Source: Candidatus Latescibacterota bacterium (GTDB lineage Bacteria > Krumholzibacteriota > Krumholzibacteriia > WVZY01). From it: a stretch of DNA of 16,693 bases. The position numbers and the translations under genes are program-made. Every line of letters begins with the position of its first letter. Position 1 is the first letter of the stretch. The notes below the pieces were generated by a model that saw nothing but the letters and a program-made list of their open reading frames with translations, searched no databases and was not told the DNA's origin. Positions 992-16,693 of this stretch are shown piece by piece. The stretch covers positions 1 to 16,693 of the forward strand of contig CAWBQK010000020.1 in NCBI GenBank assembly GCA_963791045.1. The letters run 5' to 3'.

Positions 992-1996
992 TTACTTGAG
1001 CAGGAACCCCGTGACCTCTTCGACAAAACGGTCTGTCTCGTCGATGAAAAGAAGGTGGTGGGAGTTGTCCAGAACGACGAACTTCTTCTCTCCGCCGTAC
1101 TTTTTGATGCTTTGCTTGAGCGAAAAATAGGGGACCTCGGCATCATTCCGGCCGGAGATGACAAGGAGTGGTGTTGTCAGCGCGCCAACGCGGTCCTCGA
1201 TGTTGATGGCCTGGAGTTCAGGAAACATGACGTCGTTTATGTGCATCTGTTTTTCACCCCACGCATCCTGGTACTCGCTGAAGCCGCTTCCCTCGAAGAG
1301 CTTTTCCCACGACAAGTTCTGGGTGAGACCTCCGTATGCTTCGCTCGACCAGAGCGATTTCGTGAGGGCATCCCGGTAGCTCGCATAGGGCGGGCTGCCG
1401 ATGGCCTGAAGATCCGTTATTGCGCGCTCGGCTTTGAGGTCGCGCGCCCACTGAAGAGTCATTTCATAACTCGCCAGGTATGTCGCCATCATATTGAGCG
1501 GTCCGGCCGCGTCGACAAATCCATCGATGTTGTCTTCGTGTTCGAGGAGATACAGAAATCCCAGCGTTCCGCCCCACGAGTGTCCGATCAGGTTGATCCG
1601 TTCCTTGTTGAATTTCGTCTTCAGGAAATCAACGACGGCGCCGACATCACCAACATGATTCGCAACGATAAGCGATTCATCGGGAACGTCGGGCGAGTTG
1701 AGAACACCGCGCTGATGCATGTAGGCGACAACAAAGTTTTTCTCGAAAGCGGGGCCCGGATACGCCTCGAACGCCAGGATCCCCATGGGGTTCGCGGGGC
1801 CTCCGTGGAGAAAGAGAAGGACGGGCGCGTTACTGCTTTCACCCTTCAAACGAACAAAGATCTTGGTGTCACCCGATTCGACAAGAACTTCCTCGTCCAC
1901 GGCCGCCGCCGACGCGTAGGAGCCGTACAATCCGGCGACAAAAAGCATAACCAGGGCACACATTATAGTTGCGTTAAGTTTTTCACAGCGGCGCAT
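992..1996 (-). CDS. Exported alpha/beta hydrolase (proline iminopeptidase-like)
   Basis: LFLHGGP oxyanion motif, GHSWGG nucleophile elbow, GRND acid, SHH catalytic His region. Hydrophobic N-terminus ending ASA-AA resembles a signal peptide. Start placed at ATG 1996 because of an upstream AAGGA; the ORF track starts at 2038. Confidence 0.85.
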   Translation of the reverse strand: MRRCEKLNATIMCALVMLFVAGLYGSYASAAAVDEEVLVESGDTKIFVRLKGESSNAPVLLFLHGGPANPMGILAFEAYPGPAFEKNFVVAYMHQRGVLNSPDVPDESLIVANHVGDVGAVVDFLKTKFNKERINLIGHSWGGTLGFLYLLEHEDNIDGFVDAAGPLNMMATYLASYEMTLQWARDLKAERAITDLQAIGSPPYASYRDALTKSLWSSEAYGGLTQNLSWEKLFEGSGFSEYQDAWGEKQMHINDVMFPELQAINIEDRVGALTTPLLVISGRNDAEVPYFSLKQSIKKYGGEKKFVVLDNSHHLLFIDETDRFVEEVTGFLLK

Positions 1997-2407
1997 TTTA
2001 CCATTCCTTGATTTCTTATCGAAGGGACAAAGCCACATAAGGACGGAGACTTAGGGCCTCGCGTCGGACTATTTTAACACGGATATCGCTCTCGGTCGCC
2101 CTCGAAACATAAGCACAGAAGGCCCGTCCGAACGGTCAATTGTGTCTTTTTATACTTTTTTTTACTGGCCTGAGTTCTCGCTTCTTACCATATTACCCCG
2201 CACGGGCCCCAACGGCTCCACTGCCGAGTTCGATTCTATTCGGGGCAACGACGGTGGGACACATCTCGCCGCGAACACAATAGCAATACACGATTACGAA
2301 ATAGATCGTGCGGCCGCGGCCGCTTCTACAACATGACTCACTTCCTGTGGTCGCACGATCTCAAATTACCTCTCGGGATACACCGAAACCTTCGCATTCG
2401 TATCATC

Positions 2408-2785
2408 TCACCCAACCGACTCCATGATTGCGCCGAGAACCCCCATGAAGAACACCATGAACAGAGCGATCGCGCCGAATATGAGACCGATAAGTGTCGT
2501 GACACCCTGGATCATGAAATACATCTTTAGTTTGCCGAGCGAATCGAAGAGGACTTCCTTGCTCCCGGTGAGATGAGCCCGTTCGATAGAAGAAGCGCTT
2601 TGCAAAAGCACCACACCGACCCAGATGGGCAGCCACGCGAACAAGATTCCAACGATCGACATCGCGCTCATAATGCCCGATATAATAGAAAGCACACCAA
2701 GCAGTCGGAGCCATCCTTTGGTCTGGTAGATGGGAAGGCTCACCTCACGAATCGCGGCGGTGCTGTCCTGGGTCCCTGCTTCCAT
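2408..2785 (-). CDS. DUF5362-like membrane protein
   Basis: 125 aa with about 3 TM segments. The pattern KGWLRLLGVLSII...LGKLKMYFMIQG resembles DUF5362. AGGAGG SD upstream. Confidence 0.7.
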   Translation of the reverse strand: MEAGTQDSTAAIREVSLPIYQTKGWLRLLGVLSIISGIMSAMSIVGILFAWLPIWVGVVLLQSASSIERAHLTGSKEVLFDSLGKLKMYFMIQGVTTLIGLIFGAIALFMVFFMGVLGAIMESVG

Positions 2786-2836
2786 GGTTTCCTCCTATGC
2801 ATTCGAACGATTCATCCGTGTACCTCTGGAATCCCC

Positions 2837-3574
2837 TCAAGCTTGCATCAAACTTAGAATCTTTTCAATGAAAGTACGGCCCGCGGCCGTGGTCATATCG
2901 GGCGGAACCGGCACGAACGGCACCCCGAGCTTTTTCGCGAGTTCGCCATCGGTGTCGGCGCGATCCCCTACCATAACGGCTCTGTCGCACCCGTTGAGCA
3001 CGTACCGCTTGAGATAGTCCGACATCGGCGTTTCTGGTTTGCCGACCACAGTAGGCGTCTGGCCGGTTGAAGCGGTCAGGGCGGCAATGATCGCACCGCA
3101 GTCAATGAGCCCGCCGTTCTTGGTGGGGCACACACGATCGGGGTGCGTGGCGATGAACGGCAGTCCTCCCGCGACGAGCCGGTGCGCGGTCTGGAGGTTG
3201 TCGTAAACGAGACTCGTGTCAAACCCGACGACCACGGCTTCCGCCCCGTCGGCGCCGTGCGCGATCCCCGCAGCAAGGAACTCCTCTTTCAACGACGGAT
3301 TGCCAAGCAAGAACACGCGGCTAACGGCGAGTTTTGTCTTCAGGTAATCGATGGTGACGAGATTTGATGTGACGACCGAGACGTTGTCGCTCAATAGCTC
3401 GTGGCGCCCGAGCATGGCGCGATAGTCGTCTGTTTTTCTGGAGCTGTTGTTTGTGACAAAAACAACGCCGGCCCCAAGCGCGCGGCAACGGCTCAGGAGT
3501 TCCGGTGTATGCGGAAGCGGATCGGTCTCCAGGAAGGTCGTGCCGTCCCAGTCGAGAATCACTGCGCGTTTCAT
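2837..3574 (-). CDS. HAD-superfamily class IIA hydrolase (NagD-like phosphatase)
   Basis: Motif I DWDGT, motif II VTNNS, cap AVVVGFD, GKP, motif IV MVGDRADTD. Start placed at MKRAVILD (3574). Confidence 0.9.
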   Translation of the reverse strand: MKRAVILDWDGTTFLETDPLPHTPELLSRCRALGAGVVFVTNNSSRKTDDYRAMLGRHELLSDNVSVVTSNLVTIDYLKTKLAVSRVFLLGNPSLKEEFLAAGIAHGADGAEAVVVGFDTSLVYDNLQTAHRLVAGGLPFIATHPDRVCPTKNGGLIDCGAIIAALTASTGQTPTVVGKPETPMSDYLKRYVLNGCDRAVMVGDRADTDGELAKKLGVPFVPVPPDMTTAAGRTFIEKILSLMQA

Positions 3575-3718
3575 ATGGTACACGACCCCGGTTGATGTTT
3601 TCGAAATGGATGAAAGCCAGCCCGGGCGCGCCGACCCAACGAAGAACCGGCACACCCTCATCAGCGGAGTCTATGCAAAACCAGCCACCAAATCAACCAC
3701 GGGCCGGCACGGGGGCAC

Positions 3719-5317
3719 CTAGAATACAGTGTCTTCGCCGCGGCTGCGTTCGAACATCGTGCGAATCGGGCTGTTTTCGGGGATCTGCTCGAGCGCGATT
3801 TTCTTCCATCTCGCCGTTCTCGCGAGCGGGTCTCGCATCGACAGCGTGCGTCCGCCGGGGATATCCCAGATTCCATCCCAGTAACACCGCAAACCCGGCC
3901 GGTCGGCATAGCTTCTTATCCGTCGGCCGCGAACGCGCGCACGGCCAGACGAAGGCGGTTTGGTCATCGCATCCTCAATGTGATCGACGCCGGGGGCCTT
4001 GTGGTCCAGCACCCCGGCGGCATCGAGCTTGTGAAAGAGCCCGTTCCCGTCGAGCTGCGCGAAACGAAAGTCGATCTCAAAGAGCTGCTGTCGCAGGTCC
4101 ACGTACGGTCGCAGCATATCCCAATCGAGCGAATGCAATTTGAGATACCGTGTCAGAGCCTTGATCGTATCCGGTATCGGGGAGGGCTTCGTCTCGCGGC
4201 CAAGAACCAGTTCGACTGATATCCTTCCACGGTGCTCCGCTTTGCGAACCGCCGTCTTGATTGTCTCGTTGACGTGGTTCCACGTGAAGAGTTCTTTGAG
4301 TTGAAACCCTTTTCGCTGGATGTAGTCCTCGTAAACCGGAAGTTTGATCGCCCAGTCGAGCGTGGCGGAGAGCGACTCGGGAGCGAATTCGATCCGGTCG
4401 AGCATCGAACGCCACTCCTTACACACTTCTTCGGCCCACACGGGCATCCATTTCGCGTCGATGTACTTCTCCGCTTTCTTCAGATAGTACCTCTGGATTT
4501 GAAGTGCCGTCGCCTCATGCCCGGTGATCAGTCCCACCGTTTCACGGCACGCCGGATCGCGCGCGAATGCCTGCATCGCCTCGACGGGTTTCATCGGCAA
4601 CATCTCCCTCCCCACGGCGAGTCCCGCGTCGATCATCGCGACGACCACGCCGGTCGTACCCACGCGCAACCACGACGCGAGATGAGAACAGAGACTCTCC
4701 CCGGCAATGATGTGCAGCCTGTGAAACCCACGTCTTGCGAGCGGTTCGTCTTTTCTGTGAAAGATCCCGCGAACATCCGTCGTCGACCCGCACACCTGCT
4801 TCTGGAGATGCCAGACGCGCGGCGAGATCGTGAACTCGATTCCCGCCGACATCGGATTGAACCCGCCCGCACCGGTAAAGATGATTCTCGACAAGAGGTG
4901 CGGGACGATCTGTTCCGTGAACGCGGAGGGGTGCCTCACGTGAAGGTACGACTCGTGGCTCCCCCACGTCGTTCTCGCTCCACTATAATCAACATTACAT
5001 TTGAAAACGCTCATCGTTTCATTTTTCCGGATCGAATCCGAGGTACACGACAGGGCGTCGGCCAGCGCCTTGTCCCCGGCGAGCGCGTACCGAACGACCT
5101 CGGTCGGGTTGGGGCACTCCGGCGTGCTCCATTCCGGATGCCCCCCGCAGTCCAGGTAGAACCGCGCCCCGCTCGAGAGGAAACGATCCATGGGATTCAA
5201 TCCCTGGATGTTCGGAACATTGTCGCGGACGTGCCGCTGGATCTCCTGGATGAGGGTATCCCGGTTGCGGCCACCAACGGCGTATTCCGTTTCTACACCG
5301 AGCAGCATCTCTTTCAC
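3719..5317 (-). CDS. pafA: Pup-protein ligase PafA-like (Pup ligase/deamidase family)
   Basis: Motifs colinear with PafA: GVETEY, FLSSGARFYLDCGGHPEWSTPEC (the PafA-type DxGxHPE), GSHESYL, SRIIFTGAG, KDEP, HRLHIIAGES, DWAIK, PPSSGRARVRG, RDP. GTG start at 5317 lies 1 nt after the pup stop, with an AGGTGG SD. Confidence 0.88.
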   Translation of the reverse strand: MKEMLLGVETEYAVGGRNRDTLIQEIQRHVRDNVPNIQGLNPMDRFLSSGARFYLDCGGHPEWSTPECPNPTEVVRYALAGDKALADALSCTSDSIRKNETMSVFKCNVDYSGARTTWGSHESYLHVRHPSAFTEQIVPHLLSRIIFTGAGGFNPMSAGIEFTISPRVWHLQKQVCGSTTDVRGIFHRKDEPLARRGFHRLHIIAGESLCSHLASWLRVGTTGVVVAMIDAGLAVGREMLPMKPVEAMQAFARDPACRETVGLITGHEATALQIQRYYLKKAEKYIDAKWMPVWAEEVCKEWRSMLDRIEFAPESLSATLDWAIKLPVYEDYIQRKGFQLKELFTWNHVNETIKTAVRKAEHRGRISVELVLGRETKPSPIPDTIKALTRYLKLHSLDWDMLRPYVDLRQQLFEIDFRFAQLDGNGLFHKLDAAGVLDHKAPGVDHIEDAMTKPPSSGRARVRGRRIRSYADRPGLRCYWDGIWDIPGGRTLSMRDPLARTARWKKIALEQIPENSPIRTMFERSRGEDTVF

Positions 5318-5318
5318 G

Positions 5319-5524
5319 TTACTGACCACCTTGCTGACGTGTTGCTTTCAAAAAGTCTTCACTGTTCGACGACAACGTCTCATCGACGATCCGATGTGCG
5401 GCGTCGATCAGGTTGCGCGCGTTGCCTCTCAACGAGTCGGCCTGCATCCTCGCTTCGTTGGAAGGGGGATCGGTCCGTGGGGTTTCGCGAACGGCATCTT
5501 CGTTTCTTTCTCTCTCTCGCTCAT
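5319..5524 (-). CDS. pup: Prokaryotic ubiquitin-like protein Pup (C-terminal GGQ), with an apparent frameshift near 5505-5518; absent from the ORF track
   Basis: Hand translation of the frame ending TAA 5321-5319 gives ...RNEDAVRETPRTDPPSNEARMQADSLRGNARNLIDAAHRIVDETLSSNSEDFLKATRQQGGQ*, matching the Pup C-terminal pattern (IDxxLxxNAEDFVxxYxQKGGQ). AAGGAGG SD and an ATGA overlap with the dop stop at 5524, but that ATG is out of frame across a GA repeat. An in-frame ATG at 5447 gives 42 aa. Confidence 0.85.
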
Positions 5525-7284
5525 TGCGTCGTTCCTCCTTTGTCCGGGGTATCGGCGCTCCCGGACAGCCTGGTGTGTTTCGGCCGGTGACCGTTTCGGC
5601 TCAGCCCGTCGATGATATCGACGAGTGAGCCCGCCTGTTTGAACACGCGTTCGGTGCGTTTGCGAGTGAAGCCAAACGGATTGCCCAGGTCCACCGTCCG
5701 GTGTTCAAGATTGTGTTCGTCGTCGCCGACGATAAACTGGATCTGTGCCCAATCGACCTCGGACACACGGTCCGGTCCCGCTTCGCGAAGAAGCATCGCG
5801 CGCGTCCATGCCCGCGTGTCTTCGGGAGGGTTTTTGGTGAACTTTTTGATCTCGTTCTTTTTGACGAAATGTTCGACGCGCCCCGCGCGGTCGTACGCCC
5901 AGAACAAACCTTCCTCCTTGTCGAGGCTCGAATAGATGTGATCGAGCCGTTTGACGGCGGGATGCTGCCAGTCGAGGTTCTCGTTTCCGGAGATGACCTC
6001 GTTGAGGATCGAGAACTTGAGCGCCCAGTCGAGCCTGCTCGACAACGCCGCGATGTTGCCGGTGCGGAGTTTTTCCAGCGTATCCGCCCAGAGCTCGACG
6101 ATCTCGTGGGCGCGCGGAACGATGTCGTCACAGTGTCTCTGCGACACAAACCGCGCCGCCTCTTCGAGGAACATCATCTGGAGTTCGACCGCGGTGACAT
6201 TGCGCCCCGAACACATTTTCGCCGTCGCCTTGAGTCCCGGATCGTGGCTCCAAACACCGAGCGCCGTAACCGGATCTTCGAGGAGAAGACCGAGGTTGAC
6301 GTGACCGGCCTCGATCATTGCGAGGACGATCTGCATGACGCCAGCCTTGAGAAGCGTCGAGCCGTGGCACAACGTGTTGTCGAAAAAGATCGAGTGCAGC
6401 CGCGCCATCCCCGACCCGGCGTGTTCGATGCGCCCGGACGAATCGCGGCTCGCCGTGCAGTGCGACTCGTCGCGGCTGTTGACGACGGGACGCGAGTACG
6501 TCGTGTGCGGCCCGACGATCTGTTCGAAGAAATCAGCCCGCTGCGACAGTTGGAAATCAACTTCGGGCCTGCCGTTCTCGCTTCCCACTTTGCCCTGGCC
6601 GGTGAACACGATGCTCGACACCTGATACGCGGCGAGGTAGAGGAGGTACTGCATCCTGCGCTCGAAGATGTCCTGCCAGCACTGGCGTGTGACGAGAAAG
6701 TTCATGTGACTGCCATATGCGTTGCCTCGACCGTCACTGTTGTTGACGAGTACATTAATCTTCTGTCCATCGGGGAGCTTTTGGTTCGCCGCCGCGAGGA
6801 TGCCGCGGAGGTACTCGAGCTGCGCATGCCAGCACGCGACATGATCGAAAGCGCTCCGCGTCTCGGGCACACACACCTCGATATGATTGAGATCGATGTA
6901 AATGCACCCGCCGTTCTCGGCCATGAAGCGGCGGTCGTGATCCTGGGGATTCCAGTCGACCTGCCCGCTCGTTCCGCCGATATGGTTGCCCGATGTCAGA
7001 TACATGGACGCGGCGCCCATGATGTCGGAGTAGTTGTAGTACTTGTGGCCGGAGGAGGCGACCGACCGGCGCCGTTTGTCCTCACATTCGTTGCACGAAC
7101 AACTCCACAGGAAGCGCCCCGAATCTTCGGCAAGCCCAGGTATCTCGCGAATCAAAGCCCGGGACGCTTCGCTGGAAGTTCCCCCAACGCGGTCGAGGCC
7201 GCTGATGAAGTTTCCCATCTCTCCGTCGTAACCAATGATCTTGGGTATCCCCCGCGATCGTTTCTCTTTTTTGCCGGAAGCCAT
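5521..7284 (-). CDS. dop: Dop-like Pup deamidase/depupylase (divergent member of the Pup ligase/deamidase family)
   Basis: Motifs: IIGYDGEMG, NGGCIYIDLNHIEVCVPE, NNSDGRGNAYGSH, FQLSQRADFF, TTYSRPVVNSRDESH, RLH, LDWALK, PPEDTRAWTR, VDW. Has a long loop after strand 1 and sits immediately upstream of pup, as dop does. Start at 7284 (MASGKK) follows an AAGGAG SD. Assignment as Dop rather than PafA is partly positional. Confidence 0.78.
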   Translation of the reverse strand: MASGKKEKRSRGIPKIIGYDGEMGNFISGLDRVGGTSSEASRALIREIPGLAEDSGRFLWSCSCNECEDKRRRSVASSGHKYYNYSDIMGAASMYLTSGNHIGGTSGQVDWNPQDHDRRFMAENGGCIYIDLNHIEVCVPETRSAFDHVACWHAQLEYLRGILAAANQKLPDGQKINVLVNNSDGRGNAYGSHMNFLVTRQCWQDIFERRMQYLLYLAAYQVSSIVFTGQGKVGSENGRPEVDFQLSQRADFFEQIVGPHTTYSRPVVNSRDESHCTASRDSSGRIEHAGSGMARLHSIFFDNTLCHGSTLLKAGVMQIVLAMIEAGHVNLGLLLEDPVTALGVWSHDPGLKATAKMCSGRNVTAVELQMMFLEEAARFVSQRHCDDIVPRAHEIVELWADTLEKLRTGNIAALSSRLDWALKFSILNEVISGNENLDWQHPAVKRLDHIYSSLDKEEGLFWAYDRAGRVEHFVKKNEIKKFTKNPPEDTRAWTRAMLLREAGPDRVSEVDWAQIQFIVGDDEHNLEHRTVDLGNPFGFTRKRTERVFKQAGSLVDIIDGLSRNGHRPKHTRLSGSADTPDKGGTTQ

Positions 7285-7361
7285 GTCCTTCTCCTTCTTT
7301 TTACTTTTCGGCCATACCCGGCCGCTGGTCGATCCGGGCGGGACCGCGAGTTCTCGCACAC

Positions 7362-7634
7362 GACAGGCGCGGGTGGCGGCTCGCGTTCTGGGTTGTTGAA
7401 GCCTCTGTGCATGAGAACTCGCACATCGCTTCGCTCGCCGATGGGGCCCCCGCCGCGGCGCAGCGGAGCGGAGTGCGGGTGGCACGCACGGCGCTGTTAT
7501 CGGCGAATAAGCAAACCGAGTGCAAATCGCTGTTATAAGCGAATCAGCGATCCGCACGTAGCGTCAGCGAGCACGCGCGGGGTAATCGGCGACAGGACCC
7601 GCGCCGAACCAGGTCGCCGCCACCCGCGCCTGTC
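7362..7634. repeat. 273-bp intergenic element bounded by perfect 19-bp inverted repeats (MITE-like or structured RNA)
   Basis: GACAGGCGCGGGTGGCGGC (7362-7380) is the exact reverse complement of GCCGCCACCCGCGCCTGTC (7616-7634). Internal 21-nt direct repeat, 18/21 identical, at 7492-7512 and 7528-7548. Confidence 0.75.
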
Positions 7635-9342
7635 ACGCCACCTGCACGAAGCGGTGGGTGTGGACGACTTTCTTGCGTACTGGTTCCACGCTCACCACGT
7701 CGAGATCCTGCGGCAGATCGATCAAGTAGCGCTTGCAGTTGACCGGCGTCAGCAGCCGCGCCGCGTTTTCGATTTCCTCTGAGATCGCGTCGAACACATC
7801 GTCGGGGCGGATTCCGCGGGTGCCCGTCTCGATCTCGCGCAGGCACGCCGCCCGCGCCGCCTTGTGCGCGAGTTTCGCGAGCACGGCGCCGCTTACCAGT
7901 TCGTGAATGCGGACCGTCCGCCGCGTGCCGTCACGAAACGTGATCGTCGCGACATCGCTCTCTCCGTTCGGCGCATACAACCGTGACAGTGTCGAGTCGA
8001 CGATTTCATCCCTCGCCGAGAGGCCGTCACCATCCGCCGAAGACGCGTACGGTTTGTCGGCACGGAAATACTTCGACAGGATCGAACGCGCGCCCGCCCT
8101 GTTGGGACGGCCGATCCGGATCGGGTTATCGCCGAAGCGGCCCGGGCGTGTGATCGCCTCGTCGAGAATGTCCTGACGGTTGGTCGCCGCGATCACGAGG
8201 ATGTTCCCGCGGTCCTCGAGCCCATCGAGCTCGACGGCCAACGCGTCCACCGCGCGGTCATCAACACGGTGCAGGTTCGCGCCCCGCGCCGAGGCGATCG
8301 AATCGAACTCGTCGAAGAACATCACGACGGGGATGTCCGGATCCGCCGCGGCCGCTTCGCGCGCCACCTTGAACACCTCGCGGATTTTCGCTTCGGTTTG
8401 CGAGTACCACATCGATCCCAGCTCGCCCGGCTTGATGTTCATAAACCGCGACCGCCCCGACTTCGAAAGCTCCCGCAACCAGTTCACGAGCGCCTTAACG
8501 AGAAGCGTCTTGCCCGTCCCCGGCGGTCCCTCGAGCATGATCGCGCGCTGGAGGGGGAGCCCGTACTCGCCCGTCAACGCGGGATTCTCGAGGTGAAGCA
8601 GGATGAGATGCTTGAGTTCTTCGATCTGCGTGTCGAGACCGCCGATGTCGTCAAAACTCTCCTTCGGAGCTTCTTCGAAGAAAAGATGATCGCCGGTGGC
8701 CTTGGGTATCTTTTCATAAGCGATCCGTCCGGCGGGGTTCCAGCGAACCTCGTCACCTTTCTCCAGTTCATCGTGGAGAATCCGTTCGCTGGGTTTGGCA
8801 ATGATTTCTTCGTCGCGCCGGCTCAAGACCAGGCGCCCATCGGGCGTGAAGCGCTCGAAGGTTGCCGTCTCACCACACGAGAGAGTCGTGGCCGAAATTT
8901 TGCAAACGAGCAGGTTGAGATCTCCCGAGAGAAGGACCTGGTCGCCCGCGGCAACGCTTTCCTTGTCCAGCTCGTCTATAACACGGACAAAGCGGAGCGT
9001 GCTCTCGTAGTTGACGAGCGCCGTTTCCTCTCCGGCGATCATCTGGTACTCGAGAAATGTCGCCGGGTAGAGCGGCGGCTGCGTAAGACGCTTATACGCC
9101 CCTTCAAGTTCCCCAAAAACACCTTCGAGCTCGTTCTGGACTTCCTTCGCGCGGCGAAGCCCGGTCCTGAGCCGGCCGAACTCGTGGAGCAGCAACATAT
9201 CGATATGACACCTGTTTTCTCCGGCATTATCCCGAAGCTCCTGGAGCTGGCTGCTCTTCTGTTCTGGTGAGATGCTGTCATCCATCAGAATCAGCCGTAT
9301 CAGTTCCATTTCCCTCGCGAGCGGACGTGCATTGCGCGGCAT
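7633..9342 (-). CDS. arc: ARC/Mpa-type proteasome-associated AAA+ ATPase
   Basis: N-terminal coiled coil ending LTQPP, OB-like interdomain region, FDDIGGLDTQIEEL, Walker A GPPGTGKT, Walker B FFDEFDS, AATNRQDILDEAITRPGR, and the ARC/Mpa-type segment ITFRDGTRRTV..ELVSGA. Start at 9342 follows an AAGGAGG SD. Confidence 0.9.
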   Translation of the reverse strand: MPRNARPLAREMELIRLILMDDSISPEQKSSQLQELRDNAGENRCHIDMLLLHEFGRLRTGLRRAKEVQNELEGVFGELEGAYKRLTQPPLYPATFLEYQMIAGEETALVNYESTLRFVRVIDELDKESVAAGDQVLLSGDLNLLVCKISATTLSCGETATFERFTPDGRLVLSRRDEEIIAKPSERILHDELEKGDEVRWNPAGRIAYEKIPKATGDHLFFEEAPKESFDDIGGLDTQIEELKHLILLHLENPALTGEYGLPLQRAIMLEGPPGTGKTLLVKALVNWLRELSKSGRSRFMNIKPGELGSMWYSQTEAKIREVFKVAREAAAADPDIPVVMFFDEFDSIASARGANLHRVDDRAVDALAVELDGLEDRGNILVIAATNRQDILDEAITRPGRFGDNPIRIGRPNRAGARSILSKYFRADKPYASSADGDGLSARDEIVDSTLSRLYAPNGESDVATITFRDGTRRTVRIHELVSGAVLAKLAHKAARAACLREIETGTRGIRPDDVFDAISEEIENAARLLTPVNCKRYLIDLPQDLDVVSVEPVRKKVVHTHRFVQVA

Positions 9343-10435
9343 CTTGAATCCCTCCTTCCGGAGTCTGATGTTCGTTGTCGGTAGTAACTTCCGCCCCACC
9401 CGCATCGAATACGGCGCCGCCACCCGGCACGTAATATCCTCTCCGCTCGAGCGCACCCTTTTGCCATCCAAAAAGCGTGTGGGTGATTTCATCTTCGGAC
9501 ACGTCGTTCACCGTGAGCGCGCAGGTGAACGCGCGCGGAAAAATCGTGCGGTGAAGATGCCGGTCCTCGGCGCTAAGAAACCCCTTCGCGAACGGGCACA
9601 CCGAACGCTTCTCCTGGGGACAGTCCTTGCACCACTCCCTCACCGGGTGTGAATGCCACCACCCGAGAAAAATCTCGCCCCTGCGGCGAAGGTCCACCGC
9701 CGCCCGCGCGGCCGACCACGTTTCGTGCGTGAATGTCAGATGCTTGACATCCGAAATCGTATGGACCGCCGGGACCTGCGCGGTGATTTCAACAAAAACT
9801 TCGGGGCGTTCGGTATCGCGGTGGAGGTGGCCGATGAGCACACCGCCCGTTTCCTTCGCGCCCGCGGTCCGCGCGAGTTCTCGCGTTTCCTCCAGAATGT
9901 CTTGTGAAATCACAATCGGCATCTCGCCCTGCTCCGCATCGCCGCACGCGCAAGAGCGTTCGGTGAAATCAGCGAGCGGCGATTCCTTGAACGTGATGTT
10001 CGGCGGAACCTCACGGCTCTTGTACGGCGAGACCGGCCCGGCGTTTGCGTGGCCTTCATCAAAAAACGCAACGGGAAGGTATCGCACCTGATCTTCTTTT
10101 GTCAGACGGCCCTTTTCGAGCAGCTCGGCCGTTACCTGCTTGGCCAAACCATTGAAGTACGCCGTCGGAAAATCTTCGGTCGCCCCATCGCCCTCTTCGG
10201 AGTAGATGGTCACCCTGAACCCGTCCAGATACGGTTCGCCGGCGTCGGCACTCCACAGCGGACGGATCGCCGAAGATCCGGTGCCGTCCGCCAACTGGAG
10301 CCGGCTCTGCCGTAAACCCTGCAACCACGCCCACTCGAGCGCGGGATCCCAATCCACCGAAACGGGAACCTGTTCGACGAGAGTTCCGTCGGCGCGATAG
10401 AGCGCAATCGCATAGCGATACCTTTGTGTGGACAT
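9278..10435 (-). CDS. JAB/MPN+ (JAMM) metallo-isopeptidase with an N-terminal domain of unknown function
   Basis: ETGGVLIG (catalytic Glu), GWWHSHP, and SAED completing the JAMM motif. Start at 10435 (MSTQR) follows a GGGAGG SD. Confidence 0.9.
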   Translation of the reverse strand: MSTQRYRYAIALYRADGTLVEQVPVSVDWDPALEWAWLQGLRQSRLQLADGTGSSAIRPLWSADAGEPYLDGFRVTIYSEEGDGATEDFPTAYFNGLAKQVTAELLEKGRLTKEDQVRYLPVAFFDEGHANAGPVSPYKSREVPPNITFKESPLADFTERSCACGDAEQGEMPIVISQDILEETRELARTAGAKETGGVLIGHLHRDTERPEVFVEITAQVPAVHTISDVKHLTFTHETWSAARAAVDLRRRGEIFLGWWHSHPVREWCKDCPQEKRSVCPFAKGFLSAEDRHLHRTIFPRAFTCALTVNDVSEDEITHTLFGWQKGALERRGYYVPGGGAVFDAGGAEVTTDNEHQTPEGGIQDAAQCTSAREGNGTDTADSDG

Positions 10436-10503
10436 CTCATGCCCTCCCAATACGAGAATTTGACAATCGGCCGGACGCAAAGCCGGGCCGAGGGATGATC
10501 AGA

Positions 10504-10785
10504 TCATCCTGCGTCTACATTCGGAGTCAGTGTGACCCAGTCGCCTGTTTCCAGGGCGTCACCGATGCGCTCCGTTCCATGCAGATGCCGGGCCTCGCGC
10601 CGCAGCATCGCACGGTAGCTGAGCGAACGACCTTCCGCGTCGTTCCGGTTCAGGTTCAAATCGTCGATGAGGTTCTGCACCAACTCGGCCGCCGTCGTAT
10701 CCGGCGACACGCCTTCGACGTTCCGAACCTTCTGCTGAGACACGTCGCTAGCCGTGAGCTCGAGTGTTGCGGCTTCGTACGCCAT
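10504..10785 (-). CDS. Ubiquitin-like (beta-grasp) modifier protein with C-terminal Gly (..PNVDAG)
   Basis: 93 aa with a beta-grasp-like pattern (VSPDTTAAELVQNLIDDLNL...LETGDWVTLTP) and an exposed terminal AG. GGAGGT SD. Located between E2 and JAB genes. Confidence 0.85.
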   Translation of the reverse strand: MAYEAATLELTASDVSQQKVRNVEGVSPDTTAAELVQNLIDDLNLNRNDAEGRSLSYRAMLRREARHLHGTERIGDALETGDWVTLTPNVDAG

Positions 10786-10791
10786 GATCGC

Positions 10792-11721
10792 CTACCTCCT
10801 TCCCCTTGCGGGTTCGGGTGTTGGCTCCCCGGTCTTGCGGGAGCCCTTTGCACGTGGGGCTGTCCCCCGCGCTTCCAGATATCTCCGCGCCGTCGTCCCG
10901 TCGGCAAGGATCAGGGCTTCCTTGTCACAGAAACGGCAGGCGACGGAGAGCGACGAGAGCCCGCTGTCGAGCAGCGCCGATGACGGCCGCTCGTTGAAAC
11001 GGACTTCATAAAAAACAGACACCCCATCCTCCGCGTCCACACCAGCCCGGGCAAAACGAACGAGTCCGTTCACCGTGAGCAAAAACTCCGCAAGCGCCGC
11101 ACGTGACTCATCGCAAAGCGACTTGTGTTTCGCGACGCTTGTCCTCAGCCGGTAACCGCCGTTGCCATCCGTCTCGACACCGGCTCTTCGCGACGCGTTC
11201 TGCGTGTCGAGGTCGACGAACGCTTCGCCGTTCTGCCTTTTTGAAATCACCCACCCGGTTTCCTCACAAAGATCCTCGAGCGAGTCTTCGGGGATGCTCC
11301 CCCCATTTGTCGCCGCGGCCGTCTCCGGCTTGGATATCACCGCCCGCGACGAGATGAGATTCTCGATCGCCTCCGCGCACAACTTCGCCACCTCGACGCC
11401 GTCGACCACCGGCACGTCCTCACACAGATTCAGGAGAGCCCCCTCTTCGGGTGAAAGCGCCACCCTTGCCCTGCCGGCCAGCCTGGGGTTGACCTCGAGA
11501 TACCGCCACAGGTCGCCGGTTTTCACGCTCGCCGGCACGGGGGAACGGCACGTGAGCCAGTTGCCGCCCAACTCGACGTCGATGGTCTGGTCGCTCCCCG
11601 AGTTCACGTTCACGCGCCAGGTCATCCGCCCTGTTTTCTCGACGTCAAACTTGCCGTCGAAATCCCCGGCGCAGAAGAGATCGTCGATCGATTTTTCCAA
11701 ACGCTCGATTCGGGTGTTCAC
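10792..11721 (-). CDS. Hypothetical protein with two tandem YbjN/CesT (T3SS-chaperone-like) domains
   Basis: Two internally similar halves: LWRYLEVNPRLAGRARVAL..LNLCEDV and LAEFLLTVNGLVRFARAGV..VFYEV. GTG start overlaps the E2 stop (GTGA, 11721-11718) with a GGAGGAG SD. The fold call is inference. Confidence 0.6.
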   Translation of the reverse strand: MNTRIERLEKSIDDLFCAGDFDGKFDVEKTGRMTWRVNVNSGSDQTIDVELGGNWLTCRSPVPASVKTGDLWRYLEVNPRLAGRARVALSPEEGALLNLCEDVPVVDGVEVAKLCAEAIENLISSRAVISKPETAAATNGGSIPEDSLEDLCEETGWVISKRQNGEAFVDLDTQNASRRAGVETDGNGGYRLRTSVAKHKSLCDESRAALAEFLLTVNGLVRFARAGVDAEDGVSVFYEVRFNERPSSALLDSGLSSLSVACRFCDKEALILADGTTARRYLEARGTAPRAKGSRKTGEPTPEPARGRR

Positions 11722-12251
11722 CGCTTCTCCTCCAGTGCCTGTGAGTCCTTGATTTTGTAGCTCGCGCGCCGCCGCACGAGCGGCCGCGAGTCGACGGGAA
11801 ATCTTTCCTTGTTCTTGCGCGCCCACGTACACGCTTCGGCGTTCAACGCGTCATCTTCGCGCATCGTCACCTTCTGGAAGGTGAGGATCTCGTAGCACTG
11901 GTAAATGATGTCGACGAGCGATGTGCCCGGATTGAGCATTCCAATGCAAACAAACGGAAATCGGACATTCGGATGAAATACATTCGCCGGGCCGAAGAGC
12001 GTGACCACTTCGGGCGGTGTGGCCCGCTGCCAGTAATCCGACGGAAACCGGATTCCGATGTCCACGCGGTCGTACTCACAAACACCCTCGCGAGTCTTCA
12101 GCAGCGTCTTGCAGAAGAACCTGACAAGGTACGTTTGGTGCGGTTTTTCTCCCATCGGCACCACTTCGATGAGATCGCTCCGCGCGGCCAACGCCATCGC
12201 TTCGGCTTCCTGTGTCTCGAGGAACGACTTGATGATTGGGCTTACGACCAT
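11718..12251 (-). CDS. E2 / UBC-fold ubiquitin-conjugating enzyme
   Basis: Colinear with eukaryotic UBC motifs: IRFPSDY..PP..VFHPNVRFPFVC (HPN plus catalytic Cys), PGTSLVDII..IL, ALNAEA. Start at 12251 follows a GAGGTG SD. Confidence 0.9.
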   Translation of the reverse strand: MVVSPIIKSFLETQEAEAMALAARSDLIEVVPMGEKPHQTYLVRFFCKTLLKTREGVCEYDRVDIGIRFPSDYWQRATPPEVVTLFGPANVFHPNVRFPFVCIGMLNPGTSLVDIIYQCYEILTFQKVTMREDDALNAEACTWARKNKERFPVDSRPLVRRRASYKIKDSQALEEKR

Positions 12252-12255
12252 GGTG

Positions 12256-13413
12256 TCACCTCTCTCTCCCGGGGGCTTTCCCGCCCCTGGAATCAACTTC
12301 TACATAACGCCGGCATCCACTGCTGTCGCGGATACCGAGGACATCGCCTTCCCGAACCCCAATCGCACGCAGCGTCCGATCCGCCAGGTGTGGCGGCAGC
12401 GCGGCGGGGTTGACCAACTCGCGGCTCCCGAATCCGGTCGCGACCATGTCGCCCCCGCATTCCAGACAGGCCCGGGCGCGCTTTAGGCGGGACGTGCGGC
12501 GATCGAACGTCACCTTGAGCTCGAGGACAGGATGCGGGCGGCCGCAGTCCCTGCACATGAGTTGGGTGACAAAGGACTGGCCGGGCACTTCGAGCGTTGC
12601 TTTGTGCGCGATCTTGTCGAGACGCGCATTCTTGGCCACGGACCCCTCACAACGGATGGGCGGCTCGGCGTGCAGCGGCATCCGGCACTCGCCGTTATGA
12701 TGGAGGCGAGTCAGGTAATGGTTGTGATACCCGGCATCGATCAACACCTGGAACGAATCGGCATCGGGACCACCGCCCGTGCTCGGCTCGTAGAACCCCG
12801 ACAGGATCTTGCCCGCTTCGATCGCCGCCAGAGAGCCGGCAAACGCCCCGAGGCTCGACGGCGCGTTGGTCGCCGCGGGCTCACCCGACCCCGGCGAACA
12901 CGCGTATGTCTGCTCGACGGCGGCGTAGTCCTCAGGCGTCCACCCGCACTCGGCACAGCCGCGCTCCGCGCCCGGGAAAAACACACTCACGCGGGCGAGG
13001 AGGTTGCCGCCGTCAACCCCGGCGTCGATCCACGGAATCCCCAACCGCCAGCTCGTCTCGTTGGTGTGCTGGCGCGCGCGTCTCGAGTCGAGTCCGGCAA
13101 GGATGACGTCACCTCTTCGGTGGTGGAGCGGAACATTTTCAATCCGCTCGACCAGCGCGGTCACATCAAGAGACGGGTTGATCTTCTTCATCCGCCGCTT
13201 CTGCACAACGGCCTTGGGCTTACCAACATCCGACGGCACGATGTCCTGTGATTTGAGGTTCTTCGGTTCGTACGTGTCGGGATCGATGAGCGTGACACGC
13301 CCTACCTCACTCAGCCGTGCGAGATGGGAAATCATGTGGCTGCCTATGTTGCCACCGCAGCCCACCACGACGACGTGCTTTGACATCTCATTCTGTTCGT
13401 TGAGCTTGGTCAT
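12256..13413 (-). CDS. E1-like (ThiF/MoeB family) Ubl-activating enzyme with a C-terminal Zn-ribbon/ubiquitin-fold-like extension
   Basis: VVVVGCGGNIGS nucleotide loop, IDPD..NL, VGKPKA, GLDSRRAR, CAEC, candidate catalytic Cys in TYACS. C-terminal CRDC and CLEC, then RTLRAIGVREGDVLGI. GAGGAGG SD. Confidence 0.92.
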   Translation of the reverse strand: MTKLNEQNEMSKHVVVVGCGGNIGSHMISHLARLSEVGRVTLIDPDTYEPKNLKSQDIVPSDVGKPKAVVQKRRMKKINPSLDVTALVERIENVPLHHRRGDVILAGLDSRRARQHTNETSWRLGIPWIDAGVDGGNLLARVSVFFPGAERGCAECGWTPEDYAAVEQTYACSPGSGEPAATNAPSSLGAFAGSLAAIEAGKILSGFYEPSTGGGPDADSFQVLIDAGYHNHYLTRLHHNGECRMPLHAEPPIRCEGSVAKNARLDKIAHKATLEVPGQSFVTQLMCRDCGRPHPVLELKVTFDRRTSRLKRARACLECGGDMVATGFGSRELVNPAALPPHLADRTLRAIGVREGDVLGIRDSSGCRRYVEVDSRGGKAPGRER

Positions 13414-13445
13414 TCGTTCGACCTCCTCGGTTGACCGCTTTCAAC

Positions 13446-13991
13446 TCAGCCGCACACATCGTCACCCGGAACCCACTGGAAACCCTCGTCGATGCCCGTC
13501 GGGTTGTCGCACATCGAGCACTTCGGCGCAAACGACCAGCAGTTGAGTTCATCGGTCTCATGGTGGATAACCGAACACCCGGGGCAGCGGACGACGGCCG
13601 CCCCTGGTTCGATCGTCTGCTTGCATCGGGGACACACCATCGGCTCTTCGCTCCCCTCGAACGTCTCGATCCGCGCGAGACTTTCGGCGGAAAAGTAGAT
13701 GGGTCGGTTGTCCCCAACTTTTATTTCGTCACCGTGCATGAGCGCGCGAATTCCCGTTGCCATGCGAAGTCCGTTTACTTTTATTTTCTTTGAGCGCCCC
13801 CACAGGACGGACCACGACACGTCTCTTCCTTCACCGTTGGTCGGCACGACGATGACGCTACGAGCCTTCGCGGTTTTGGAATGCGTCGCTTTGACTAACT
13901 TTGGGGGTGAGCCTTCGATGTCGAGCGATTGCTCGGTGAGCGGAACGACCAGCCACTGACGATCGTCGTCGCGAAACCAGATGTAGGCCAT
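13446..13991 (-). CDS. FHA-like domain plus prokaryotic RING-type Zn finger (candidate E3 ligase)
   Basis: VNGLRMATGIRALMHGDEIKVG resembles the C-terminal strands of FHA. C-x2-C-x12-C-x2-C-x4-H-x6-C(W)-x6-C-x2-C resembles Prok-RING_1 / C4HC3 fingers. First gene of the E1-E2-Ubl-JAB cluster. Confidence 0.75.
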   Translation of the reverse strand: MAYIWFRDDDRQWLVVPLTEQSLDIEGSPPKLVKATHSKTAKARSVIVVPTNGEGRDVSWSVLWGRSKKIKVNGLRMATGIRALMHGDEIKVGDNRPIYFSAESLARIETFEGSEEPMVCPRCKQTIEPGAAVVRCPGCSVIHHETDELNCWSFAPKCSMCDNPTGIDEGFQWVPGDDVCG

Positions 13992-14137
13992 GGTGACGAC
14001 CCCTCTTTTTCAAAATCACTTTTTTTTACCGGAGGCGAGGGTCGGCACTTGCCATTATGGGAAACCTGGCTACACTATACGTAGAGCATGTGTGTGCGTT
14101 CCCTCGACCACCCGGTAGTTTTATCAGAACCAACTGG

Positions 14138-14166
14138 ATTATATTGGAAAGGCACCCGAACGTCAA
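14138..14166 (-). promoter_or_regulatory. Near-consensus sigma70 promoter of the Ubl/Pup cluster
   Basis: TTGACG (14166-14161), 17-nt spacer, TATAAT (14143-14138). Predicts a start site near 14131 and a leader of about 140 nt. Confidence 0.8.
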
Positions 14167-14430
14167 GCACTAACTCATTATTTTACAAGGGTTTAGTCAC
14201 AGTGGGCGCTCAAAATGCCTCACCGTAGCCCAGTTTTTACGGTCAGATCGAATCGAGTCGAAATGCTCCTGCGTTTGTCACAGTAGATTTTAAAGCCGTC
14301 ATTCTGAGCGACTTTCCACGCACAGAAACGGCATAAAATTCGTTACTGTGAGAACACTTCGACAACTCGATTCTTGAATCGCACCGTGTGTCCGTCCGTC
14401 GCTCCCGCCGCCTTCCTGGAGGTCTTGCTA

Positions 14431-15548
14431 ATGGCAGCCAAGACAAGAAAAACCACAAAGCTTGTCCCCAAAGTCGATCCCTGTGTCGCCCGCGCGTCAT
14501 GCCTTCGGTACGTAGATGAACCGTTGGATGAATGGGAAATCATGTCGGCCGTCGGTGAGTTGATCACCAGCGGCTGCAGCGTGGCAGAAGTTCAGGAGAA
14601 GATATTCGAGAAGTACAAAGTGGAGATGTCGCGCGAGAAACCGTACTACTATTTGCGGATTCTCGGGGAGCAGGGTTACCTCCGCTATGTCGCGCCGTCG
14701 TGTCACGAGTTGAAGGACCAGATCGAACAAAATTTCGATTGGCTCGAGCGCGTTCATGTCGTTCACACCACCGTCTCAAATGATGTCGCGCGCGAAGCGG
14801 CTTACATGCTTCTCCGGCTCGTCCAGCAGTATCACCGAACCCACGGGAAGAAGGATGCCGTGCATGTGGGCTGGGCCGCGGGCTTATCGATGCTGCAGAC
14901 GGCCAGGGCCTTTGCCGAGATCCTGCAGAGGCCCGCAAACGGTCTTCCCAAAAAGATTTACTTCCATGCGATGGTCACCGGGCACGACCCGGGCAATCCC
15001 GCGACGGACCCTAACGCGTTCTTTACCTTCTTCCTCGAGCCTCCCGCGCTTCAGATCGAACCACATTTTGTCGGGCTCCATGCGCCGTCGATGGTGCTGA
15101 CCGAAGCGATACCCCGATTGAAAAGGAACGTAGAGATCGCGCGCGCGTTCGACGCCGCCAAGGACATCGACATCATTGTGACATCGGGCTCGGACTGGCA
15201 GGATCGGCACAGTTCGCTGCGCGCATGCATGGAGGCGTCGGAGTCGACATACCAGACGCTCAAACAGGAGAAAACGGTGGGAGATATGTTGTGGCGCCCA
15301 ATCGGCGACGACGGACCGATCGAGATGGAGACGGAGAGGCGCGCGCTCACGCTCGTCGAACTCAGCGACCTCCCCGAGTTTATCAAGAGCGGGAAGTACG
15401 TGCTTATGATGTTGGGGCCTGTGCGTCGTGCAACCACCACAAGGGAAGGATTCTACACACGGCGCTGCATCAGAAACAACCGCTGTTCACTCACCTGGTG
15501 TGCGACAGCCGCACCGCCGCGGCGCTTCCAGGTCTGTCGAAGAAGTAG
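14431..15548 (+). CDS. SorC/DeoR/LsrR-family transcriptional regulator (HTH plus sugar-phosphate-binding domain), with an apparent 1-nt frameshift near 15420
   Basis: HTH-like MSREKPYYYLRILGEQGYLRY, then LKDQIEQNFDWLERVHVV, VHVGWAAG, DIIVTSG, VGD. The family-typical end LFTHLVCDSRTAAAL lies in the other frame (ORF 15225..15548). GGAGG SD before ATG 14431. Confidence 0.8.
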
Positions 15549-15577
15549 GTTTTGGCCAGGCCGGGCCATACGAAGAA

Positions 15578-16693
15578 TCAGACACGGGGGTGGCTCAGAA
15601 GTCGGCGGTAGACGCGGTACAGATACACGATGCCGCTTCGTATCCGCTTGTTGTAAATGCGGATGGATTCGTTTTGCCGGGTCGTCCCCGTCCAGTGGCG
15701 CTTGTACGGTTCGTCTCCGCGGAGGAGGTCGAATTCGCTTCGGCCTCTTCGCGCCGCCTCTTCGATGCAGAATCCCAATAGCGCGGTCAACACATTGGTG
15801 CGCTTCACCGGCATCGGCTGCACCGCGCTTATATAATAGTAGAGCTTGTCGTTGTAATCGAAACCGTAGAACGATCCGATGTGGAGACCGTCGAGTGTCA
15901 TCGTCGCAAGAAACAAGATTTCCTTGTCCATGAGCGCGCGCGACACATTGTGATGAAATCGTTCGATCTCATCCGAACAGAAACTCTCCGAGCCGCCCCG
16001 TGCTTTCCAGCTTTTTTTGTTGAGCGCGATCAAATCATTCATCCGCGCGGGCAGATCATCGCCATTTTCACACAAATCGAAGCGGAGGTCGCCGGTCTCG
16101 GCGAGGCGGCGGCGCGAACAACGAACCGTATACCGATTGGTCCGCCGGTAACTCTCCAGCAATTCCTCCCACCCGCCGTTCAAATGAATATAAGGACATT
16201 TTGTGTATCTCACGTGCTTCGCCGTCGAACTGCGGGTGTCTCTCGACGCCAGTTCCTTGAATCTATCGAGAACCGGCGACGTCTCCGGCACTTCGAAGAA
16301 CTCGAACACATCCCATTCTTTCCTCAGCGGCCCGAACAGGTGATCCCAGATCGCCGTCGCACCACGCGTCACGTCGTCAGCCTTCACGATCATACAAAAT
16401 AGTCCGTAATGCCGGCGCCGACCGGCCTCAACACTGGTAGCTCGAGCATCCGCCGGTACGTCACCTTCTGCACCCAGAGCGGCGCGATGGCGATGAGTTC
16501 ATCACCGTCGTACGCGGCGACCGCGAGCAGCCTGTCCCCGTTGATGCACGTTTTCGCCCAGTTCGACACCCACTCCCATGTGAGAAAGACATCGTTGAAA
16601 TGACTCTTCTCGAGAAGCGCGTTCCACTGGGCGCAGCGTATCCAGCTCGTCAGCAATACGTACTCTCGTCGAAGTGTATACGTACATAAACAT
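15578..16693 (-). CDS. CelD/BcsL-type GNAT acetyltransferase, split by two apparent frameshifts (near 16395 and 16631); may begin at or beyond the window edge
   Basis: Three overlapping ORF pieces join into one colinear protein: DELDTLR / QWNALL..FLTWEW..LIAIAPL..GITDY / MIV..CPYIHL..W..LL..EFDLLRGDEPYKRHW. Confidence 0.8.

Follow-up and report, generated by a model that had tools for sequence, protein, structure and literature searches.

Ubiquitin-type and Pup-type tagging are textbook convergent solutions and are treated as alternatives to one another. In actinobacterial pupylation the genes follow the order arc-dop-pup-pafA, Dop carries a loop that PafA lacks, both enzymes have a catalytic Asp, the ATPase combines OB and AAA domains, and the small tag ends in GG[EQ]. 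Operons of the Caldiarchaeum subterraneum type encode ubiquitin, an E1, an E2, a small RING E3 and an Rpn11-like JAB protein, and Burroughs and colleagues are said to have described, in 2011, rare bacterial operons of E1, E2, RING and JAB genes. Here we analyse a stretch of DNA (the window) that is an entire contig of 16,693 bases (C20; CAWBQK010000020.1) of a Candidatus Latescibacterota bacterium, and that belongs to a bin of 3.66 Mb in 21 contigs (G000; 81% complete, 5.8% contaminated). Open reading frame calls together with Pfam and NCBIfam matches place on its minus strand, from 13991 to 3719, ten co-oriented genes encoding, in this order, a RING-like protein, an E1, an E2, a tandem YbjN-like protein, a ubiquitin-like protein (Ubl), a JAB protein, an ARC/Mpa-like ATPase, a Dop-like protein, a Pup-like protein and a PafA-like protein. 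A preliminary description of the sequence had proposed just such a ten-gene operon, with a full ubiquitin-type set joined to a full Pup-type set, and both proposals are borne out, the second by domain, residue and synteny evidence. We judge it to be on balance probable, if not by much, that the ten genes constitute one conserved functional unit: a proteasome-independent, two-tag pathway of tagging and unfolding organised around a single ARC/Mpa-like AAA+ unfoldase.

Each half of this locus belongs to known systems. Complete ubiquitin-type operons exist in some bacteria according to the available text of PMC5654768, and rare bacterial RING E3s are described in the available parts of 10.1101/2023.09.26.559546. 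The Bil and Bub operons, as presented in the accessible portions of PMC11601596 and 10.1101/2023.09.26.559546, bring together E1, E2, Ubl and JAB genes, as the operon in the window does; unlike them, the operon studied here also has a RING-like E3 and the Pup set, and its matches in PADLOC are only generic. The words 'Pup' and 'PafA' are absent from the Bub papers PMC11601596 and PMC11601603, and 'AAA' occurs twice in PMC11601596, once in a reference title and once in a strain name. Iyer et al. 2008 (PMC2588565) list ubiquitin-type and Pup-type tagging as independent inventions and describe Pup/PafA neighbourhoods outside Actinobacteria, which in the parts of that paper available to us have no link to ubiquitin-type genes. 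We found no publication linking E1/E2 genes with Dop/PafA in the literature searched, in which coverage of key earlier papers and supplements was incomplete. The combination is possibly a new kind of two-tag machine.

To follow the arrangement beyond the window, we searched 208 genomes of the window's phylum with an alignment of the JAB protein, as well as 401 sampled genomes of Gemmatimonadota. The JAB family is present in 6 of the 208 genomes, and by tblastn the same ten-gene order, at 31-61% identity, is seen in three genomes of the phylum (G004, G071 and the one-contig genome G012), while a fourth (G179) has the same operon in a copy cut by a contig end. Among the Gemmatimonadota the family occurs in 6 of 401 genomes (four full-length and two divergent), of which G595, G518 and G398 have the whole gene set in the same order, and G211 and G226 preserve that order at only 23-38% identity to the window. 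In some of these syntenic genomes tblastn overlooked the Pup-like or the YbjN-like gene. The E2 family was found in 7 and the Pup-ligase family in 8 of the 208 genomes, with both present in 6. The exceptions are G142, which is 59% complete and has the E2-like gene only, G008, in which a 3.3-kb fragment shows ARC, Dop and PafA and nothing upstream of them is visible, and G192, which has a lone PafA-like gene.

The same order is found in metagenomes. Specifically, we tallied the neighbourhoods of the best 80 of at least 182 JAB relatives, applying fixed visibility thresholds and taking as denominators the loci in which a given gene should be visible. The JAB gene is followed by ARC in 63 of 63 loci, ARC by Dop in 37 of 37, and Dop by PafA in 22 of 22. 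RING stands ahead of E1 in 20 of 20 loci and Ubl ahead of JAB in 66 of 67, an E2 gene occurs in 34 of 34, and the YbjN-like gene was detected by tblastn in 29 of 34. Because the order is conserved across genomes and 80 metagenome loci, the juxtaposition of the two halves is far beyond chance. A misassembly or a one-off juxtaposition, the outcome against which the preliminary description had set its proposal, is ruled out: the neighbourhood survey found the same order in other genomes and in the metagenome loci, and a repeat in the spacer between arc and dop is shared within the bin. More widely, a threshold of E<=1e-30 recovers 581 members of the JAB family from 1.84 billion cluster representatives, and at E<=1e-20 the family comprises at least 330 clusters when grouped at 90% identity. 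Its record titles mention Latescibacterota, Gemmatimonadota, Acidobacteriota and Blastocatellia, its annotations are generic ('Mov34/MPN/PAD-1', 'proteasome lid subunit RPN8/RPN11', hypothetical), and many uncultured bacteria of soil and sediment share the operon.

The predicted proteins of the ubiquitin-type half make up a complete set of E1, E2, E3-like protein, Ubl and JAB, as shown by their domains and residues. The E3-like protein matches Prok-RING_1 at 22.5 bits against a Pfam cut-off of 29.1, and has a C-terminal zinc finger in which 7 Cys and 1 His are invariant among 22 orthologues in the manner of a C4HC3 cross-brace (RING/PHD-like); its profile gives weak matches to PHD and RING chains in the PDB. 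An Atlas feature search with its N-terminal half led to FHA clusters (scores 0.86-0.87), and we treat an FHA-like N-terminus as a lead only. The E1 consists of a ThiF-type adenylation domain, a zinc site, Cys172, and a C-terminal four-Cys zinc ribbon with a tail. Residues D44, N52, Q56, K67, D109, R114, C153/C156, C172, C243/H248 and C287/C290/C316/C319 are invariant in 24 orthologues, and Cys172 is the putative thioester Cys. In the E2, the HPN...Cys signature has H93 and C102 invariant and P94 and N95 conserved in at least 90% of 36 orthologues; 26 of the 27 PDB matches of its profile, which are weak (E 0.0025-1), are to ubiquitin-conjugating (E2/UBC) proteins.

The Ubl, modelled with AF2 from a 60-sequence alignment, adopts a ubiquitin-type beta-grasp fold (pLDDT 89.8) whose best PDB match is the Caldiarchaeum ubiquitin in complex with an Rpn11 homologue (6fno_D; TM 0.72/0.75), followed by ubiquitin, SUMO and ISG15; searched against PDB sequences, its profile found only sub-threshold SAMP1/MoaD matches (E 0.12-0.2). 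The protein in the window ends in ...DAG, and a C-terminal ...AG is found in 69 of 71 metagenome orthologues, 27 of which stop at the Gly and 42 of which continue into a variable tail, with 2 that differ. Ends of this kind, at ...AG or at ...AG plus a tail, are the pattern of a processed modifier conjugated through Gly. The JAB protein matches the Pfam families Prok-JAB and JAB above their cut-offs. Its JAMM motif (E195, H261, H263, S288 and D291) is invariant in 31 orthologues, as are C269/C272/C280 of a Cys-rich insert within that motif. Its N-terminal domain of ~170 aa is family-specific, and an Atlas feature search with this domain gave a best score of 0.81 and no family. The tandem YbjN-like protein forms two tandem alpha-beta modules in its AF2 model (pLDDT 89.0, pTM 0.86), with Foldseek matches at probability 1.00 to AmyR, YbjN, VecA, SycT and SycE, each of which corresponds to one module.

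This half shares with the Caldiarchaeum-type operon the parts list, the best structural match of the Ubl, an eight-ligand zinc finger, an HPN...Cys E2 and a full JAMM motif. It differs in the extra N-domain and Cys-rich insert of the JAB protein, in the YbjN-like gene between E2 and Ubl, in the E3 N-domain that may be FHA-like, and in being joined to ARC, Dop, Pup and PafA.

The Pup-type half likewise appears complete, with ARC-like, Dop-like, Pup-like and PafA-like proteins, and none of the four reaches its NCBIfam equivalog cut-off. The ARC-like protein matches NCBIfam TIGR03689 at 293.8 bits (cut-off 504.75) over model positions 33-487 of 512, and matches Pfam AAA (6.8e-31) and Prot_ATP_ID_OB_C (1.3e-9) above both cut-offs. 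It has a helical N-terminus, OB domains and an AAA domain, and its Walker A motif G-x-x-G-x-G-K-T is invariant in 31 orthologues. An HbYX tail is lacking: most of 42 orthologues end in ...R-[YF]-x-x-x-A, without a penultimate Tyr, the last two residues being V-A or A-A. The conservation of this tail suggests that it docks a partner in place of the HbYX-20S contact.

The two members of the Pup-ligase family can be told apart by the Dop-loop, a criterion that separates Dop from PafA (available text of PMC7947786). The Dop-like protein scores 202 bits to Mycobacterium Dop and 103 bits to PafA, keeps the catalytic Asp (...Y-I-D...), and has an N-terminal acidic pair, D-x-E, that is conserved in at least 90% of 27 sequences and is followed by a variable insert of 60-100 aa. 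This insert falls in the Dop-loop region, which is enlarged, between the acidic motif and the catalytic Asp. The PafA-like protein aligns to Corynebacterium PafA (4b0t/4bjr) from residue 2, in the ETEY motif, to residue 336, lacks the ~40-aa Dop-loop and keeps the catalytic Asp (...Y-L-D...). Its score is higher to Dop than to PafA (180 and 135 bits), and it too lies below the NCBIfam cut-off.

A small tag ending in G-[EQ] next to ligase genes is the criterion for Pup given in the available parts of PMC2588565. In all 23 metagenome loci in which both Dop and PafA are visible, the two genes flank a small open reading frame ending in GG[EQ], with GGQ in 12 and GGE in 11. The orthologues are 63-68 aa long and share an N-terminal M-x-x-R-E-[RK] and a C-terminal ...R-Q-x-G-G-[EQ]. 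Among seven of these orthologues, the Pup model of Pfam weakly matches 2 and that of NCBIfam 1, all sub-threshold. We also considered UBact, the Pup-like tag of Gram-negative phyla; apart from the weak Pup matches, no family in Pfam or NCBIfam was matched at E<=10. In the window the Pup-like gene that had been predicted is present, but its reading frame is broken as assembled. Its ATG at 5524 overlaps the dop stop codon and the frame opens with M-x-x-R-E-[RK] but stops at 5429, whereas the C-terminal part ending in GGQ sits in another frame, in which an internal ATG opens a 42-aa open reading frame at 5447-5319. The change of frame falls in an A/G-rich stretch around codons 7-10. We examined contigs from four public runs over 5250-7700; none covers 5414-5495, and one begins at 5507 and is gap-free. 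The frameshift may be either an assembly error or a real mutation.

The Pup-type half follows actinobacterial pupylation in gene order, in the distribution of the loop and the catalytic Asp between its two ligase-family proteins, in the domains of its ATPase and in the end of its tag. It departs from it in scoring below the equivalog cut-offs, in a tag that escapes Pup models in most orthologues, in the ATPase tail, in being joined to a ubiquitin-type cascade, and in occurring outside Actinobacteria.

A search of six genomes (G000, which is only 81% complete, and G012, G004, G071, G179 and G208) revealed no 20S proteasome. Each of the six has one match to PF00227, in a protein of ~170-185 aa. 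We read this match as most likely HslV because Escherichia coli and other proteasome-less controls give a like match. Corynebacterium glutamicum, a control with a Pup ligase, was not among the PF00227 positives, and thereby provides a precedent for a Pup/ARC system that lacks a proteasome. Nor is any protease gene conserved in the flanks of the operon, in those loci that have visible flanks.

How the two tags might cooperate can be inferred from the genes. In the two-tag pathway that we favour, the E3-like protein would pick substrates and the E1-E2-E3 cascade would attach Ubl to them, while PafA would attach the disordered Pup-like tag to lysines. Pup would then dock on the N-terminal helices of ARC and supply the threading end. 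The JAB protein, whose gene is predicted to be translationally coupled to arc, may play at the ATPase the part that Rpn11 has in the 26S proteasome, both maturing Ubl precursors and stripping Ubl from engaged substrates; Dop would deamidate GGQ tags and remove or recycle Pup; and the tandem YbjN/chaperone-like protein is likely to hold an unfolded stretch of either the tag or the client. The outcome could be unfolding, disassembly, or hand-off to another protease. The parallel with the base and lid of the 26S proteasome, where Rpn11 sits at the mouth of the Rpt AAA+ ring, lies in an MPN+ gene coupled to a proteasomal-type AAA+ gene and in a tag of the ubiquitin fold. Unlike the 26S proteasome, the system has no 20S core that we could find and has a second, unrelated tag, so that the likeness would be one of working principle, as read from the genes. 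A complex prediction for JAB (residues 1-345) with two copies of the N-terminal 240 residues of ARC, from 31-row alignments, scored 0.00 and returned no verdict.

Several observations weigh against one functional unit of this kind. The RING, E2, Pup and TIGR03689 (ARC) matches lie below curated cut-offs. E1 adjoins E2 in 21 of 28 visible loci; in 2 it lies farther off, and in 5 none was seen. One locus (L056) has unrelated genes (WD40, STAND NTPase) inserted, and the unit therefore tolerates interruption. All surveyed loci were picked through JAB, and the tallies are silent on how often either half occurs alone. In the window itself the Pup arm may be impaired, or the 42-aa product lacking the conserved N-terminus may be used. 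Finally, no lysine is universally conserved in either tag, so the tags need not meet and could act in parallel on different substrates.

If a conserved operon does keep both tags around one unfoldase, this would show that bacteria combine them. The operon would also give a simple model for the origin of the partnership between a deubiquitinase and an AAA+ ring, and would offer a new setting in which to test the role of Pup and ARC in the absence of a proteasome. Three new families emerge from it: a Pup-like tag missed by standard models, a JAB protein carrying an additional domain, and a YbjN-like partner of two tandem modules.

A more specific version, which we put forward tentatively as possible, is a two-signal machine in which the ARC ring holds an Rpn11-like JAB as a fixed subunit and engages a client only if it bears both marks. 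A phospho-reading FHA-RING E3 would place Ubl, the extra domain of JAB would read Ubl, and the ARC coiled coil would read Pup, which would serve as the threading end. If true, this would amount to the base-lid logic of the 26S proteasome in a prokaryote, with a second unrelated tag and without a 20S core, and would for the first time place two protein-tag chemistries in one pathway.

Several other explanations of the locus have to be weighed. The one that fares best, though we regard it as unlikely, is an anti-phage or conflict system like Bil or type II CBASS, in which tags would be placed on invading proteins that ARC then unfolds. The preliminary description had mentioned phage defence, along with stress response, as a possible role. 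Its patchy spread, with the JAB family in 6 of 208 and 6 of 401 genomes, is what such a system would show; record titles naming three phyla suggest horizontal spread, the G+C content of the operon lies above that of its flanks, most clearly at the low-coordinate end, and L056 has acquired genes for a STAND NTPase and a WD40 protein as insertions. Uncharacterised bacterial operons of E1, E2, RING and DUB genes are, moreover, predicted to be antiviral in the available text of 10.1101/2023.09.26.559546. However, PADLOC gives only generic, partial domain matches, to E1 (adenylation), JAB and AAA, and none for 6 of the 10 proteins. There is no plasmid or phage match, the flanking genes are of housekeeping types (HAD, alpha/beta hydrolase, GNAT, TsaD), the operon contains no toxin-like effector, and an order held at 23-38% identity fits an old, stable cellular function. 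Two narrower candidates of this kind were rejected. A known defence system (CBASS Cap2/Cap3, IetA, TRIP13 and others in PADLOC) is rejected because no model is matched at full length, and a mobile-element origin because searches of 72,556 plasmid records and 50,697 phage records gave no match to the JAB protein.

Somewhat less likely still is a sequential relay, in which the E3 would put Ubl on the substrate, PafA would pupylate the Ubl, and the resulting Pup-Ubl-substrate would go to ARC. Such a relay would account for the strict co-occurrence of both halves and for a folded beta-grasp Ubl that has no threading end, one that the disordered Pup could supply, and one Ubl position is indeed Lys in 87% of 60 sequences. 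That same position, however, is K or R in 98% of them, a tolerance of Arg that is incompatible with an acceptor site; 2 of the 60 Ubls have no lysine at all, and PafA of known systems modifies many substrates. The preliminary description had offered pupylation of the Ubl itself as one possibility, and these counts speak in part against it. Because Arg replaces the best-conserved Ubl lysine in roughly one sequence in ten, and because lysine-free Ubls and at least one Pup-like protein without any lysine exist, an obligatory tag-on-tag relay is unlikely; as a general requirement, such a relay or poly-Ubl chains through a conserved lysine were rejected on the same observations.

We give little credence to cross-regulation, in which the substrate of one module would be the other module (for example, with Ubl placed on ARC, Dop or PafA, or Pup on E1, E2 or E3) and a single tag would mark clients. 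The strict linkage of the halves would follow from it, and PafA self-pupylation in mycobacteria is reported in the accessible parts of PMC4783102, but a complete E3-like protein that has its own recognition domain, together with Ubl precursors that need maturation, looks like a cascade aimed at clients, and we found nothing specific in favour of cross-regulation. Least likely, and quite improbable, is that two independent systems merely hitch-hike on one mobile cassette without functional interplay: each half is complete alone and the operon tolerates insertions, yet the same order persists across clades at 23-38% identity, JAB and arc are joined in every locus where the junction is visible and their reading frames overlap, the locus has a single unfoldase, with none set apart for the Ubl half, and 6 of 7 E2-positive genomes also have Pup ligases.

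The features of the locus are collected in the table below, for which the start codons of the E2 (12251), the YbjN-like gene (GTG at 11721) and the JAB (ATG at 10435), ARC (ATG at 9342), Dop (ATG at 7284) and PafA (~5308) genes were moved by comparison with orthologues.

Table 1. Predicted features of the operon in the window, with family matches given as E values.
Feature	Position	Strand	Match or remark
Putative sigma-70-like promoter	14138..14166	-	TTGACG, 17 nt, TATAAT; 11/12 consensus matches; ~145 nt upstream of first gene
E3-like (RING-like), 181 aa	13446..13991	-	Prok-RING_1 1.1e-4
E1, 385 aa	12256..13413	-	ThiF 6.5e-29
E2, 177 aa	11718..12251	-	UQ_con 5.6e-3 (under cut-off)
Tandem YbjN / type III secretion chaperone-like, 309 aa	10792..11721	-	PF10722 2.7e-5
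Ubl, 93 aa	10504..10785	-	No family match; beta-grasp model
JAB/MPN+ isopeptidase (predicted), 385 aa	9278..10435	-	Prok-JAB 5.8e-7, JAB 5.2e-5
ARC/Mpa-like AAA+ unfoldase (predicted), 569 aa	7633..9342	-	TIGR03689 2.4e-87
arc-dop spacer with a dispersed repeat of ~245 nt	7285..7632	.	Outside conserved architecture
Dop-like depupylase/deamidase (predicted), 587 aa	5521..7284	-	Pup_ligase 1.7e-91
Pup-like tag gene, frameshifted as assembled	5319..5524	-	Pup 2.7e-3 (under cut-off)
PafA-like ligase (predicted), ~529 aa	3719..5308	-	Pup_ligase 7.9e-82; start ATG 5308, or GTG 5317 or 5329
Weak terminator-like hairpin after PafA stop	3697..3712	-	5 pairs

The junctions between these genes are mostly tight, as the preliminary description had stated, with gaps of a few nucleotides or overlaps. 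RING and E1 are 30 nt apart, E1 and E2 4 nt, and the YbjN-like gene and Ubl 6 nt; the E2 stop codon and the GTG start of the YbjN-like gene overlap in GTGA, dop and pup overlap in ATGA, and pup and pafA are separated by 1-13 nt. Ubl and JAB are 68 nt apart, and the RNA of this spacer folds no better than shuffled sequences (z = -0.42). The overlap of the JAB gene with the start of arc, which had also been described, is confirmed at 65 nt, with the arc ATG and a GGAGG site lying inside the tail of the JAB gene. The generalisation fails at the junction of arc with dop, which are 348 nt apart here, as compared with 0-65 nt in loci L009 and L010. The predicted promoter upstream of the operon was likewise recovered as a promoter-like site before the first gene; it is the best of 3 sites in our search, for which shuffled sequences give 2.1 expected. 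Terminator-like hairpins are found at 7 sites against 9.7 expected, so that the hairpin at the end of PafA is by itself no evidence.

The repeat in the arc-dop spacer has 45 matches on many contigs of the bin at 73-100% identity, the spacer copy included, and resembles a miniature mobile element; many unrelated contigs from the four public runs align to it with loose ends. The insertion is specific to this genome, and because the dispersed repeat is common to other contigs of the bin, the contig's place in the bin is supported.

The G+C content is 0.58-0.65 within the operon, 0.51-0.55 in the low-coordinate flank (1-2500) and 0.53-0.58 in the high-coordinate flank (0.53 at 13500-15000), a contrast that is a weak hint of foreign origin. 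A possible regulator is encoded upstream of the operon by a divergent gene of 519 aa, 14374-15933 on the plus strand, which has only weak Sugar-bind and HTH hints; members of its family occupy the same position in 7 of 26 loci (the window, L009, L010, L020, L044, L046 and L090). A conserved eleventh gene is ruled out, as the flanks differ by clade. We note that a gene in the same orientation, for a protein of ~380-390 aa with an AAA domain and AAA_lid_9 (a Clp-type lid), directly follows PafA in 8 of the 22 loci whose flank is visible (L056 16705-17880, L059 16447-17589, L090 14056-15225 and five others); the window lacks it. At the other end, a gene for a sigma-54 activator (bEBP) stands just upstream of the RING-like gene in L140 (14559-16463, minus strand), L141, L142 and L058, three of which are from Gemmatimonadota.

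Some loci depart further from the arrangement in the window. A distant variant, L022 (G142:C30, 2395-10665, minus strand), has a JAB-like gene (no Pfam match, 22% identity) together with an ARC-like AAA gene with an OB domain. Upstream of this pair are an E2-like gene and a 98-aa open reading frame, then come a 392-aa unknown protein, a second JAB and a ThiF E1, and the operon has no Pup-ligase genes. This variant hints that the JAB-ARC pair is a core to which different tagging modules attach. In L056 the insertion (1515-8053) comprises three genes between E1 and E2, which encode a WD40 protein of 826 aa, a DUF4062-STAND/NACHT NTPase of 833 aa and an outer-membrane beta-barrel protein. L142 (G398:C11) has, at 13943-18670 and beyond Dop, three extra Pup_ligase-family matches (PafA paralogues), of which one is on the opposite strand.

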